From Escherichia phage BP32: a stretch of 64,000 nt of DNA. The DNA is taken from sequence record OR906198.1. One strand, given 5' to 3'. Shown piece after piece: positions 31,257 through 34,595 of this stretch. The notes beneath the pieces were generated by a model, which was not told where the DNA came from, ran no database searches, and worked only from the letters and a program-made list of their open reading frames with translations. A program made the position numbers and the translations under genes. Every line of letters starts with the position of its first letter. Within the stretch, counting starts at the first letter, position 1.

Positions 31257-31582
31257 TGACAGACACGCAACTTTTCGAATATCTTTATTTTTCGCCAAAA
31301 ACTATTAAAAATAAATTGGTGAATCATTTTGAAATTTTGGCAAATAACAACGTCTTGAGCGAATTTTATCCTAAGCAATACAAATTACAAAAAGGCGTAT
31401 TCAAAGGATGCAGAGTTTTGTGCACTGCTCCTAATGCAAGATTAATGAATAAAATTCCATATTTTACCATGGAATTTATTGATGGACCTTTTAAAGGACT
31501 AATCACCCAAAGTTTAATGGCATATGATTCTGAGCCATTTTTAATTAAAGAGCAATCTTGGATAAATTTATTTTCTAATTGA
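31253..31582 (+). CDS. hypothetical protein
   Basis: 109 aa from ATG 31253, overlapping previous stop. Confidence 0.55.
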
Positions 31583-31590
31583 GAGGTTAT

Positions 31591-31953
31591 ATGAAAGCAT
31601 ATCAAATTCTTGAAGGCACGCATAAAGGTACTATTTATTTTGAAGACGGTATTCAAGCACGAATTATTGTCTCTAAAACTTTTAAAGAGGACTCTTTTGT
31701 AGACCCAGAAATTTTCTATGGTTTGCATGCCCGTGAAATTGAAATTGAAACACAGCCTACAGTTAAAATTGAGGGTGGTCAACACCTGAACGTAAACGTT
31801 CTGCGTCGTGAAACTCTGGAAGATGCAGTTAAGCATCCGGAAAAATATCCGCAGCTGACCATCCGTGTATCCGGTTATGCAGTTCGCTTTAACTCTCTGA
31901 CTCCGGAACAGCAGCGCGACGTTATCGCTCGTACCTTTACTGAGAGTCTATAA
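31591..31953 (+). CDS. autonomous glycyl radical cofactor (GrcA/YfiD-like)
   Basis: C-terminal glycyl-radical motif [27 protein letters not shown]; start at ATG 31591 (120 aa); I recall a T4 GrcA homolog (Y06I). Confidence 0.8.
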
Positions 31954-32714: not shown

Positions 32715-32743
32715 TTTACTTTTCCTCTTGACTGTGGTATAAT
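32715..32743 (+). promoter_or_regulatory. T4-type early promoter
   Basis: -35 TTTACT, 17-bp spacer, -10 TATAAT with TGG extension; upstream of regB. Confidence 0.65.
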
Positions 32744-32770: not shown

Positions 32771-33232
32771 ATGACTATCAACACAGAAGTTTTTATCCGT
32801 CGAAATAAGCTCCGTCGTCACTTTGAGTCGGAGTTTCGTCAAATTAACAATGAGATTCGTGAGGCATCAAAAGCAGCAGGGGTCTCATCGTTTCATCTAA
32901 AATATTCTCAGCATCTTCTTGATCGTGCAATTCAACGGGAGATTGATGAGACATATGTTTTTGAATTATTCCATAAAATAAAAGACCATGTTTTAGAAGT
33001 TAATGAATTTCTGAGTATGCCTCCGCGTCCTGACATTGATGAGGATTTTATTGATGGGGTTGAATATCGTCCTGGACGTTTAGAAATCACAGATGGAAAT
33101 CTTTGGCTTGGATTTACAGTTTGTAAACCTAATGAGAAGTTCAAAGACCCGTCACTTCAGTGCAGGATGGCAATCATCAACAGTCGTCGTTTACCAGGAA
33201 AGGCTTCTAAAGCAGTAATTAAAACTCAATGA
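32771..33232 (+). CDS. regB: RegB endoribonuclease
   Basis: 153-aa ORF at T4 regB length behind GGAGAAT RBS. Confidence 0.8.
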   Translation: MTINTEVFIRRNKLRRHFESEFRQINNEIREASKAAGVSSFHLKYSQHLLDRAIQREIDETYVFELFHKIKDHVLEVNEFLSMPPRPDIDEDFIDGVEYRPGRLEITDGNLWLGFTVCKPNEKFKDPSLQCRMAIINSRRLPGKASKAVIKTQ

Positions 33233-33239
33233 GGTAAGC

Positions 33240-33785
33240 ATGAGAAAAGCACTACTCGCTGGTCTATTGGCCATTTCTATGATGGCACATAGCTCCGAGC
33301 ATACTTTCAGTAATGTCCAACTCGATAACATGCGTTACGCGTATCAATTCGGGGAACAATTTTCTAAGGATGGAAAATATAAAACACACAAAAATATCCA
33401 CAAGAGCGGATTGGGTCATATAATGGCTGCTATTTTATGGCAAGAAAGCTCTGCCGGAGTTAATTTAAAATCTAAACCAAAGCATCATGCCTATGGAATG
33501 TTCCAAAATTATTTGCCTACTATGCGAGCAAGAGTTAAGGAACTTGGTTATAATATGACCGATGCTGAAATAAAAAGAATGTTGAATAAACGGTCCAATT
33601 CAGCTTCCTGGGCGTACATTGAACTTTCTTATTGGTTAAATATACATAAGGGCGATATAAGAAAGGCGATATCCTCTTATAATTCGGGATGGAATGTTAA
33701 AGCAGGTTCTAAATATGCTTCTGAAGTCCTAGAAAAGGCTAATTACCTTAAAAATAATAAACTTTTGGAAATAGTAAATGACTAA
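33240..33785 (+). CDS. secreted lytic transglycosylase (SLT domain)
   Basis: signal peptide MRKALLAGLLAISMMAHS; SLT motifs WQESS, YGMFQ, SYNSGW. Confidence 0.7.
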   Translation: MRKALLAGLLAISMMAHSSEHTFSNVQLDNMRYAYQFGEQFSKDGKYKTHKNIHKSGLGHIMAAILWQESSAGVNLKSKPKHHAYGMFQNYLPTMRARVKELGYNMTDAEIKRMLNKRSNSASWAYIELSYWLNIHKGDIRKAISSYNSGWNVKAGSKYASEVLEKANYLKNNKLLEIVND

Positions 33786-34119
33786 AATTTTGGTTTTATG
33801 TATAGGATTAATTTCATTTTCTGCGTTAGCAAATACATCATACACTGAAATTAGAGAGTATGTAAACCGTACTGCCGCGGATTATTGTGGGAAAAATAAA
33901 GCATGTCAAGCCGAATTTGCGCAGAAATTAATATATGCATATAAAGATGGAGAAAGAGATAAATCAAGTAGATACAAAAATGATACATTGTTAAAACGAT
34001 ATGCTAAAAAGTGGAATACCTTAGAATGTTCAGTTGCGGAGGAGAAAGATAAAGCCGCCTGTCATTCAATGGTTGACCGTTTGGTAGATTCTTATAATCG
34101 AGGATTGAGTACTAGATGA
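33778..34119 (+). CDS. small secreted protein
   Basis: 113 aa with signal peptide MTKILVLCIGLISFSALA and four Cys; overlaps SLT gene end. Confidence 0.6.
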   Translation: MTKILVLCIGLISFSALANTSYTEIREYVNRTAADYCGKNKACQAEFAQKLIYAYKDGERDKSSRYKNDTLLKRYAKKWNTLECSVAEEKDKAACHSMVDRLVDSYNRGLSTR

Positions 34120-34595
34120 TTGTAAAATATATCAAGGGCGATATTGTCGCCCTATTTCTTCAAGGTAATATTATTGCGCACGGGTGCAATTGTTTTCATA
34201 CAATGGGCTCTGGCGTAGCAGGTCAATTAGCAAGAGCCTATCCCAAAATTTTAGAAATAGATAAAACCACTACTGAGTACGGTTCTCGTGATAAATTAGG
34301 CGATATGTCTATTGTTTTTAAACATAATCCTACGGGATTTGGTATATGCTATAACTTGTATACGCAATACGAACCGGGTCCTAATCTTGATTATGGTGCT
34401 TTAGTAAACTGCATGATAGAATTAAATCTACAGGCAGAGACCCTTTTGTTTAAACCAGTAATTTATATTCCACGCATAGGTTGTGGTATTGCTGGTGGTG
34501 ATTGGGATAAGGTTTCTAAATTAATCGACATGTTTACTCCTGATATTGATTTAATAGTGGTGGATTATGAAAGTACATTACCCGCATCCGTTTGA
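34116..34595 (+). CDS. macro-domain protein (ADP-ribose binding/processing)
   Basis: 159 aa; N-terminus IKGDIVALFLQGNIIAHGCNCFHTMGSGVAGQL matches macro-domain glycine-rich pattern. Confidence 0.7.
   Translation: MIVKYIKGDIVALFLQGNIIAHGCNCFHTMGSGVAGQLARAYPKILEIDKTTTEYGSRDKLGDMSIVFKHNPTGFGICYNLYTQYEPGPNLDYGALVNCMIELNLQAETLLFKPVIYIPRIGCGIAGGDWDKVSKLIDMFTPDIDLIVVDYESTLPASV

Follow-up and report, generated by a model that had tools for sequence, protein, structure and literature searches.

Two overlapping genes of Escherichia phage BP32, vs.1 and vs, encode proteins that both carry Sec-type leaders, and the pair is best read as a periplasmic module of a peptidoglycan-cleaving enzyme and its partner. 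We hold this reading tentatively, at slightly less than even confidence. Databases uniformly name Vs a modifier of the host valyl-tRNA synthetase, a cytoplasmic enzyme. Since modification of the synthetase is a cytoplasmic role, this annotation conflicts with the signal peptide of Vs. Both genes have long been catalogued in T4; they are already known, not new, and the pair is therefore ordinary as a find. Only the topology of Vs, set against this annotation, stands out as a notable lead at the locus.

The window, that is, the whole stretch of 64,000 nt analyzed from sequence record OR906198.1, belongs to a Tequatrovirus that shares ~98% identity with phages Sf21 and PP01. An earlier note, made from the letters alone, had placed two ORFs on the + strand at 33240-33785 and 33778-34119 with an overlap of 8 nt, and both are found exactly there (Table 1). 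They are virtually certain to be the orthologues of vs.1 and vs, two early genes of T4. Hundreds of GenBank phages share the pair at 98-100% conservation, and the products match phrog_600 (Vs.1, 5.6e-69) and phrog_1256 (Vs, 6.5e-40), which excludes a chance pair of ORFs. The genes are the same as in T4, where Vs.1 is 99% and Vs ~97% identical and where the gene order, the 8-nt overlap, and the neighbors are shared. The T4 Vs has 115 aa instead of 113 aa, and the sole difference is a two-residue indel in the signal peptide (ASASA in T4, ALA here). The locus reads regB, vs.1, vs, and tk.4, a macro-domain gene, all on the + strand. The vs stop codon overlaps the tk.4 start codon in the ATGA at 34116-34119. 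The product of T4 tk.4 has been named AdfM, an anti-DarT2 factor (HIDEN-SEQ preprint).

Table 1. Features of the vs.1/vs locus and its context (positions in the window)
Feature	Position	Strand	Basis
Promoter-like site TTTACT-17-TATAAT, extended -10 TG, 28 nt upstream of regB	32715..32743	+	Consensus scan, 10/12 matches
regB, T4 site-specific endoribonuclease; upstream context, outside the module	32771..33232	+	Pfam REGB_T4 E=8.1e-69; regB in syntenic PP01 record
vs.1, predicted secreted single-domain GH23/SLT enzyme cleaving peptidoglycan glycan strands	33240..33785	+	ORF, phrog_600, Pfam SLT, AF2/Foldseek
Vs.1 predicted Sec signal peptide, residues 1-18, cleavage between AHS and SE	33240..33293	+	n/h/c rules; low pLDDT in AF2 model
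SLT domain core, Vs.1 residues 61-154	33420..33701	+	Pfam match extent; invariant motif columns
Catalytic-candidate Glu69 codon of vs.1	33444-33446	+	Invariant column
vs.1 motif II, G86-M-F-Q89	33495-33506	+	Invariant columns
vs.1 motif III, S146-Y-N-S-G150	33675-33689	+	Invariant columns
vs.1/vs overlap, 8 nt, ATGACTAA	33778..33785	+	Direct sequence reading
vs, annotated 'valyl-tRNA synthetase modifier'; reads as a predicted exported four-helix, four-Cys protein	33778..34119	+	ORF, phrog_1256, PF26829, AF2
Vs predicted Sec signal peptide, residues 1-18, cleavage between ALA and NT	33778..33831	+	n/h/c rules; pLDDT <50 over residues 1-18
Cys-codon span of mature Vs, two candidate disulfide bonds	33886..34062	+	Invariant Cys columns
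Vs codon of C37	33886-33888	+	Alignment
Vs codon of C43	33904-33906	+	Alignment
Vs codon of C84	34027-34029	+	Alignment
Vs codon of C95	34060-34062	+	Alignment
tk.4, macro-domain protein; downstream context only	34116..34595	+	Pfam Macro E=5.8e-8

The promoter-like site upstream of regB is likely to be the early promoter of regB, vs.1, vs, and tk.4, on evidence that is weak because it is a pattern match and because shuffled sequence gave more such sites in the scan than the region did. Promoter-like sites on the minus strand within vs (e.g., 33909-33881, 11/12 matches) were taken as chance, since such sites are rarer in the region than in shuffled sequence.

Vs.1 is a precursor of 181 aa with a predicted mature form of 163 aa (18.8 kDa, pI 9.7). 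The three SLT motifs that the earlier note had read in this ORF are present as W67-Q-E69-S-S, Y85-G-M-F-Q89, and S146-Y-N-S-G-W151. The SLT-profile search proposed there was run and gave PF01464 over residues 61-154 (E=4.8e-5). This match clears the curated cut-off by a narrow margin (23.4 vs 21.3 bits), and precomputed PF01464 matches are present in only some Vs.1 orthologues. The putative catalytic Glu, whose conservation had been named as the other point to check, is invariant. In alignments of 17 and of 42 orthologues, reaching down to ~41% identity, E69, G86/F88/Q89/N90, and Y147/N148/G150 are all invariant, and S70 is nearly so. The E-S motif is kept even in distant Vs.1-like proteins as WRES, LQES, WIES, LTES, or WEES. 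The spacing of motifs II and III appears to be the usual one in comparison with Slt70.

The AF2 model of Vs.1 has a pLDDT of 88.9 and a pTM of 0.83. Its top Foldseek matches are MltD 8rhi (E=9.6e-3), g-type lysozyme 3gxk, GH23 chitinase 3w6e, Slt 5ohu/6fpn, and the phi6 lysin, with probabilities of 0.97-1.0, TM scores of 0.44-0.54, and modest E-values. The predicted lysozyme-like helical fold thus matches solved transglycosylases. With family 1 lytic transglycosylases such as Slt70, MltD, and MltE, Vs.1 shares the three motifs and the single conserved catalytic Glu, and its predicted fold matches those of MltD and Slt. The sequence similarity to this family is, however, marginal (23.4 bits in Pfam and nothing significant among PDB sequences), and Vs.1 has a conserved N-terminal segment, residues 23-58, outside the Pfam SLT match. 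A Sec leader followed by one SLT domain in a mature protein of ~160 aa is a layout like that of the specialized enzymes VirB1, IpgF, IagB, and P19. In contrast to these, Vs.1 has no secretion or transport machine encoded alongside. We regard it as highly probable that Vs.1 is a GH23/SLT enzyme. The claim of the earlier note that this ORF encodes a murein-cleaving enzyme of the SLT/GH23 type with a Sec-type leader thus agrees with sequence, conservation, and predicted fold. Besides Vs.1, T4 makes two further murein hydrolases, the endolysin e and the gp5 tail lysozyme. The Vs.1 gene is separate from the e lysozyme gene, as had been proposed; e lies several genes upstream in the syntenic PP01 record. 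A paper of 2006 already described the similarity of vs.1 to SLT domains and lytic transglycosylases (PMC1524935). No functional study of Vs.1 was found in the literature search.

Vs.1 might instead be a hydrolytic g-type muramidase, an auxiliary lysis enzyme, or an inert wall-binding protein, all of which we consider improbable. GH23 holds both chemistries, Foldseek ranks a cod g-type lysozyme and a GH23 chitinase beside the transglycosylases, and searches of PDB sequences with single-sequence and profile queries returned only g-type lysozymes, all weakly (E = 0.38-3.7). However, no acidic residues other than E69 and E128 reach 90% conservation, and no Asp is conserved in the stretch that follows the catalytic Glu. 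In GH23, the absence of a conserved Asp after the catalytic Glu is the pattern of transglycosylases, and the motifs E-S, G-x-x-Q, and A/S-Y-N-x-G are those of family 1 lytic transglycosylases. Since a second conserved catalytic acid is absent, action as a lytic transglycosylase is most likely for Vs.1. An inert protein is hard to reconcile with how strongly E69 is conserved. A holin-dependent endolysin does not fit the Sec leader or the position in the early regB block, an early timing suggested by the promoter match and by the general biology of T4.

Signal peptides were judged by a script applying n/h/c rules: a positive n-region, a hydrophobic h-region, and small residues at -3/-1 or a lipobox. 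The N-terminus of Vs.1, MRKALLAGLLAISMMAHS followed by SEHTF, carries two positive charges and a hydrophobic core of 13 residues, and its A-x-S site follows residue 18. That of Vs, MTKILVLCIGLISFSALA followed by NTSYT, has an A-x-A site after residue 18. The signal peptides that the earlier note had seen on both ORFs are recovered by the script. They are kept in 48/48 distinct Vs.1 sequences, and among the 52 distinct sequences of Vs their character is conserved in 51; the median length of the h-run is 13 residues. Secretion signals are independently marked on both genes in the GenBank record of Acinetobacter phage Lazarus. At six Vs loci, all in a Karamvirus-like clade, a lipobox, ALSGC, takes the place of the cleavage site. 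A lipoprotein was rejected for the Vs of this window, where LVLC is unfit as a lipobox. The leaders suggest, with good probability, that both Vs.1 and Vs are exported. The literature search found no paper treating a Vs signal peptide.

Vs is a precursor of 113 aa, with a predicted mature form of 95 aa (11.0 kDa, pI 9.0). It has five Cys residues. C8 lies in the leader, and C37, C43, C84, and C95 lie in the mature part, where all four are invariant in the alignment and present in every full-length member of both subfamilies. They may form two disulfide bonds. Alternatively, the four clustered Cys could be zinc ligands in a cytoplasmic protein. The AF2 model of Vs has four helices and a pLDDT of 74.8. 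Precomputed annotation assigns the family to PF26829, which all homologues carry, and our searches of NCBIfam and Pfam gave no real match for Vs. By tblastn, Vs was found in 795 phage records. The T4-type and a second type of Vs are homologous (hhalign 98.3%, E=1e-14), although pairwise identity is low across the family, at 0.33 in the leader and 0.37 in the mature part. The family appears isolated in each of the collections searched. PDB sequences gave no match to Vs, and the best PDB hit of the Vs model in Foldseek had an E of 1.7, with no known inhibitor of lysozymes or transglycosylases among the matches. In BFVD the model found only members of the Vs family, and an HMM search for remote relatives among 1.84 billion representatives gave eight matches, all from the same family. 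A profile search with the whole family in 5.8 billion proteins returned 29 proteins of 45-119 aa, all stand-alone, with no Vs-SLT fusion among them, a point against joint action of Vs and Vs.1.

The current name of Vs implies another view, which we find doubtful: Vs would be the cytoplasmic 'tau' peptide that binds valyl-tRNA synthetase, its N-terminus would be unused for export or its pool only partly exported, and its Cys residues would bind metal. The pairing with vs.1 would then be incidental in a tightly packed, syntenic early region, and Vs.1 alone would act as a periplasmic transglycosylase. Vs bears the name of the classical tau factor. We take tau to have been roughly 10 kDa, which is close to the 11.0 kDa of predicted mature Vs. 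In the work of Neidhardt and Marchin (1966-1980), modification of valyl-tRNA synthetase reportedly takes place in vivo, a point in favor of a cytoplasmic Vs. In addition to its universal naming as a synthetase modifier, this view has on its side the classical genetics and biochemistry, which are cited in PMC8076793 and HIDEN-SEQ. However, no sequence tie of the classical vs mutations or of the tau peptide to the vs ORF was found in the accessible literature.

Several properties of Vs also do not fit a cytoplasmic binder, which should lack a conserved Sec leader or lipobox. The leader is kept in nearly all distinct orthologues despite the low identity of the family, and the true lipobox at six loci is sensible only outside the cytoplasm. 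A leaderless Vs cannot be made, because M98 is the sole later Met and the one further start-type codon seen on reading, a TTG at codon 5, lies within the leader. Cytoplasmic Vs from alternative initiation was therefore rejected. Vs also evolves rapidly (mean p-distance 0.60), whereas the enzyme proposed as its target is highly conserved. Full-length His-tagged Vs made in the cytoplasm was insoluble (PMC8076793). From the leader, the lipobox variants, the four Cys, and the lack of a leaderless start, Vs is predicted to reside outside the cytoplasm. On the reading of the pair as a periplasmic module, the label 'valyl-tRNA synthetase modifier' would be a historical mis-assignment or would describe a secondary or in-vitro property.

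Gene arrangement bears on whether Vs works together with Vs.1, which we think nearly as probable as its opposite. In 60 of the 61 loci, the Vs-family ORF begins at an offset of -8 to +7 nt relative to the vs.1 stop codon, and the overlapping or adjacent genes are kept across many genera of Straboviridae. The 8-nt overlap implies translational coupling, by which vs may be translated after vs.1. tk.4 directly follows vs in 35/61 loci. The pair persists in Acinetobacter phages that have neither regB nor tk.4; this survival of the junction after loss of both flanking genes counts against an incidental pairing. However, RegB also almost always adjoins vs.1, as constantly as Vs does, and T4-like genomes are highly syntenic. 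Adjacency alone is therefore weak evidence. Furthermore, Vs is absent next to the Vs.1-like enzymes of Kuttervirus, Agtrevirus, Felixounavirus, Slopekvirus, Chrysonvirus, and Biquartavirus, so that such enzymes work without Vs in several phage groups. In a mirror-tree comparison of 51 taxa, the distance matrices of Vs.1 and Vs correlated with r=0.74 versus r=0.92 for Vs.1 and RegB. A specific Vs.1-Vs coevolution signal was absent in these taxa (partial r given RegB, 0.15). These points are in favor of an incidental pairing with a cytoplasmic Vs. Saturation of the Vs sequences probably makes them unfit for the mirror-tree test.

Published fitness screens in T4 indicate a cost for either gene. 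In HIDEN-SEQ, comparing LB with M9, insertions in vs are depleted more strongly in minimal medium than those in any other gene (log2FC -2.19, adjusted p = 0), and vs.1 has a log2FC of -0.87 (p = 0.0055, adjusted p 0.155). Read densities of vs.1 and vs in LB are several-fold to ~30-fold below those of adjacent non-essential genes. In CRISPRi-ART, vs.1 is 'Semi-Fit', one of only five such genes of purely unknown function. These fitness data could come from polarity or insertion bias. The minimal-medium defect of vs would be explained just as well by a role in tRNA charging, as amino-acid supply limits growth in this medium, and it thereby also speaks for a Vs acting on the synthetase in the cytoplasm.

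The same screens bear on the kind of partner that Vs may be. Vs could be an inhibitor or immunity-type antidote of Vs.1 that restrains the wall-degrading enzyme until late infection, so that loss of Vs would be worse than loss of Vs.1; we consider this unlikely. Such a role has a precedent in the T4 protein Spackle (sp), which is likewise small, helical, and exported by Sec and which inhibits the gp5 lysozyme, a phage murein hydrolase, in the periplasm. The sp product is listed as 'spackle periplasmic protein' in the HIDEN-SEQ data. Spackle is the nearest functional analogy to the role proposed for Vs, but it has no detectable similarity to Vs in sequence or fold, and sp lies apart from its target gene, whereas vs overlaps vs.1. 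Ivy, MliC/PliC, and PliG are periplasmic inhibitors, the compartment that is predicted for Vs too. Ivy inhibits a lytic transglycosylase. These inhibitors consist mostly of beta structure, in contrast to the all-helical fold predicted for Vs, and none of them was among the Foldseek matches. The stronger depletion of vs than of vs.1 in M9 is what an antidote would give, and vs.1 insertions probably reduce the expression of the coupled vs too. The position of vs downstream of the enzyme gene with putative translational coupling, its fast evolution, and the shared predicted compartment are also consistent with an antidote. However, insertions and knock-downs in vs.1 are costly, which indicates that Vs.1 is useful and not merely toxic. 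Many Vs.1-like enzymes have no Vs at all, and the screen values come from one experiment in which vs.1 is not significant after correction.

The earlier note had suggested a periplasmic partner or inhibitor. The partner is favored by coupled adjacency, a common predicted compartment, and parallel fitness effects in T4, whereas the inhibitor is disfavored by a model unlike known inhibitors. Superinfection control, lysis timing, and wall remodeling, which the note had listed as roles, are guesses.

In the periplasmic module that we favor, vs.1 and vs would be transcribed early together with regB from a sigma-70-type promoter. Sec would export both precursors, and cleavage would follow S18 in Vs.1 and A18 in Vs. 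Once in the periplasm, Vs.1 would cut the glycan strands of peptidoglycan by means of Glu69. Mature Vs would form a four-helix bundle with two disulfides and, as the partner of Vs.1, would restrain, target, or stabilize it. The module would add fitness most clearly in minimal medium and would be dispensable in rich medium. A more far-reaching version, which we rate as possible but not probable, holds that Vs is not a synthetase modifier but an exported, disulfide-bonded partner of Vs.1 that is lipid-anchored in one clade. It further holds that a third secreted protein joins the pair in many genera and that an envelope module explains the depletion of vs in minimal medium.

By itself the finding adds little, since vs.1 and vs are known T4 genes and the transglycosylase similarity of vs.1 is long published. 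Its weight lies in Vs. At present the screen result for vs is interpreted on the basis of an old annotation, with which the topology read from the sequence disagrees. Should Vs be periplasmic and act together with Vs.1, the pair would be a third early envelope-acting system of T4, beside Imm/Spackle and RI. Another gene, or another explanation, would in that case have to be found for the role of the phage's modification of valyl-tRNA synthetase, which has lacked an explanation since the 1960s.

The two overlapping ORFs that the earlier note had described are present on the + strand where it placed them. They share 8 nt, and the stop codon of the second forms an ATGA overlap with the start codon of the gene that follows. 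The region 32700-34700 matches 728 phage records by megablast, the top matches being 98% identical (Shigella phage Sf21 and E. coli phage PP01). Wherever genes are named in these records, the ORFs are vs.1 and vs, and the PP01 and T4T records have the common order vs.3, regB, vs.1, vs, tk.4, tk.3 ... tk, rI. From this naming and gene order, the window is therefore Tequatrovirus, and the ORFs are the T4 vs.1-vs pair. Identity to the T4 proteins is 99% for Vs.1 and about 97% for Vs, and in length they differ only by an indel of two residues in the leader of Vs. The indel sits in the signal-peptide c-region (SALA/N in the window, SASASA/D in T4; slash, predicted cleavage site), and the A-x-A cleavage site is kept in both. 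The macro-domain gene tk.4, which carries a G+C-rich hairpin of 8 pairs just within its 5' end, has been named AdfM, anti-DarT2 factor (HIDEN-SEQ preprint, bioRxiv 10.1101/2025.11.20.689424). The same early gene block includes vs.6; in related phages, its counterpart bears the annotation autonomous glycyl-radical cofactor (GrcA-like), and its Gly_radical match was also reported by Nolan et al. 2006 (PMC1524935).

Table. Features of the vs.1-vs region in the window and in comparison loci (L0xx, phage records or contigs with local coordinates)
Feature	Coordinates	Strand	Remark
vs.6	window 31579-31953		
Promoter-like site	window 32715-32743		regB promoter region
vs.1 ORF	window 33240-33785	+	181 aa
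vs ORF	window 33778-34119	+	113 aa
Vs leader segments	window 33778-33831; L002:1501-1560		window; T4
tk.4	window 34116-34595		after vs
Hairpin	window 34135-34153		
Vs with ALSGC leader	L011:2049-2375; also L042, L043, L045, L046, L059		Karamvirus-like
Truncated Vs	L025:3041-3298; L045:3049-3246		85 aa (phage vB_EcoM_005); 65 aa
Vs-less Vs.1-like SLT genes	L062:1953-2570; L065:1935-2549; L063:2001-2549; L064:1809-2450; L067:1980-2504		Kuttervirus, Agtrevirus, Felixounavirus, Slopekvirus, Chrysonvirus; no Vs downstream
Third secreted protein	L008:2363-2761; L011:2372-2791; L010:2288-2713; 20 more loci		directly 3' of Vs
Five-gene run	L010:1441-3287		Acinetobacter phage Lazarus

By profile, motifs and model, Vs.1 is a divergent yet convincing member of the SLT/GH23 family; the earlier note had proposed a lytic transglycosylase. 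Pfam SLT matches residues 61-154 (E=4.8e-5, 23.4 bits, cut-off 21.3). The PHROG family of Vs.1 is itself without annotation, and the next PHROG matches are weak ones to lytic tail proteins and endolysin domains. The candidate catalytic glutamate, E69, is invariant in alignments of 17 and 42 orthologues reaching down to about 41% identity, together with G86/F88/Q89/N90 and Y147/N148/G150. Among acidic positions, only E69 and E128 reach 90% conservation. In GH23, lytic transglycosylases work with a single acid, and the acid pattern of Vs.1 would fit this mechanism better than that of g-type lysozyme. The best PDB structural matches of the AF2 model (42 sequences, pLDDT 88.9, pTM 0.83) are all GH23, namely P. 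aeruginosa MltD and Slt enzymes, cod g-type lysozyme, a GH23 chitinase from Ralstonia, and the P5 lysin of phi6. Their probability is ~1.0, but E-values are modest (~1e-2; TM 0.44-0.54), and PDB sequences give only weak g-type lysozyme matches. Nolan et al. reported a marginal SLT match of vs.1 in all six T4-like phages examined, citing earlier PSI-BLAST results (PMC1524935), and some GenBank records carry the label 'transglycosylase SLT domain-containing protein'. Neither the genes nor their SLT assignment is new.

Signal peptides claimed for both ORFs also hold, and the two proteins appear to be exported. The Vs.1 precursor starts with MRKALLAGLLAISMMAHS/SE, that of Vs with MTKILVLCIGLISFSALA/NT. 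A rule script asked for a positive n-region, 9 or more consecutive uncharged residues, and either a -3/-1 site or a lipobox; 48/48 distinct Vs.1 and 51/52 distinct Vs sequences passed it, and the single failing Vs is leader-like on inspection. Leader sequence drifts among orthologues; leader character stays. The Acinetobacter phage Lazarus annotation independently places a 'putative periplasmic secretion signal' on both genes. M98 is the sole Met of Vs beyond the start codon, and reading the ORF gave just one further start-type codon, a TTG at codon 5, within the leader; a leaderless form cannot be made. The lipobox ALSGC closes the Vs leader in six Karamvirus-like loci, and Vs of this clade is a predicted lipoprotein rather than a soluble periplasmic protein. 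The four Cys of mature Vs are found in every full-length member of both subfamilies. The AF2 model of Vs (pLDDT 74.8) has helices 19-37, 41-60, 67-84, and 89-111 and a disordered leader. The Cys flank helix turns 1-2 and 3-4, which makes two disulfides plausible. In a structural-genomics survey, His-tagged full-length Vs formed inclusion bodies (PMC8076793).

The pair forms a conserved unit. We searched 61 Vs.1 loci (the window, 10 GenBank records, and 50 IMG/VR contigs), picked by patterns specific to close Vs.1 relatives, with family HMMs; in 60 of them, the start of a Vs-family ORF lies between -8 and +7 nt relative to the vs.1 stop. As a synteny control, tk.4 directly follows vs in only 35/61. 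There are two Vs subfamilies, the T4 type, ending ...SMVDRLVDSYNRGL, and a second in Jiaodavirus-, Karamvirus-, Krischvirus-, and Lazarusvirus-like phages. The two are homologous by hhalign (98.3%, E=1e-14), and their four Cys align. RegB, an unrelated RNase, is nearly as constant a vs.1 neighbour as Vs; it lies upstream in most loci and is missing from the four Acinetobacter phage loci, which retain vs.1-vs. By tblastn, Vs.1 is found in 2013 phage records and T4-type Vs in 795. No Vs stands beside more distant secreted Vs.1-like enzymes of Kuttervirus, Agtrevirus, Felixounavirus, Slopekvirus, Chrysonvirus, and Biquartavirus. In the examples read from the first five of these genera, the mature part of the enzymes holds 2-4 Cys; Vs-paired enzymes have none in most loci and a single Cys in some Acinetobacter-type loci. 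Two Vs are naturally truncated, one by an internal deletion that takes out the first two conserved Cys, the other stopping short after the second. Phages that are otherwise intact can evidently carry a damaged Vs or lose it.

A third secreted protein (132-146 aa, signal peptide, two conserved Cys, mature N-terminus like WEKLPGYP) lies directly downstream of Vs in 23 loci, those whose Vs has second-subfamily Cys spacing, and is missing from T4-type loci and the window. In many genera, the secreted block therefore comprises three genes. In Lazarus, vs.1, vs, the gene of the third secreted protein, one for a small membrane protein, and rI follow one another, all five with predicted signals for secretion or the membrane, a contiguous cluster of predicted early envelope-acting genes.

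The earlier interpretation is thus supported in part. A partner role for Vs is plausible; inhibition of Vs.1 by Vs, and the roles that the earlier note had put forward (superinfection control, lysis timing or cell-wall remodelling), would be candidates. Distance matrices correlate less for Vs.1-Vs (r=0.74) than for Vs.1-RegB (0.92). No Vs-SLT fusion occurs among 29 Vs family members found in 5.8 billion proteins, and 1.84 billion representatives, searched exhaustively by HMM, yielded only eight Vs proteins. The Vs model has no match beyond its own family in PDB or BFVD, and none to Spackle, Ivy, or MliC-type inhibitors. In T4, HIDEN-SEQ finds both genes non-essential (TA sites inserted: vs 30/32, vs.1 46/52), and vs is the most depleted gene in M9-glucose, as a clean deletion confirms. 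From LB to M9, vs falls from 26.6 to 5.0 (log2FC -2.19, adjusted p = 0) and vs.1 from 22.6 to 11.9 (log2FC -0.87, p = 0.0055, adjusted p 0.155), while neighbours remain high (regB 179 to 403, tk.4 290 to 275, vs.3 652 to 626) (bioRxiv 10.1101/2025.11.20.689424). Read densities of vs.1 and vs in LB are therefore already several-fold to about 30-fold lower than those of the neighbours. In CRISPRi-ART, five T4 genes whose function is purely unknown rank as 'Semi-Fit', vs.1 being one of them, and vs has a lower score (0.35, 'Not Fit') (PMC11879866). These screens fit a shared function; polarity on the coupled vs, insertion bias, or a tRNA-charging role could also account for them.

All sources label Vs as modifying the valyl-tRNA synthetase of the host, a cytoplasmic enzyme. 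Biochemical and genetic work of 1966-1980 defined this modification, with a peptide of ~10 kDa, tau, and vs mutations mapped between e and rI. The main rival reading, which we consider rather unlikely, is that Vs truly is this cytoplasmic modifier and its pairing with vs.1 incidental. Cytoplasmic action is favoured by the historical in-vivo evidence, whereas sequence evidence favours export; the predicted mature Vs of 11.0 kDa would fit either. We are aware of no published sequence, whether of a peptide or of a mutant, linking tau with the vs ORF, and we found no discussion of the Vs leader in the open-access literature. Our best explanation, held tentatively, is that Vs.1 and Vs would be an enzyme and its partner in one periplasmic module, its early expression driven by the regB promoter region. 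The locus has a single point of interest, the conflict between the leader of Vs and its annotation.
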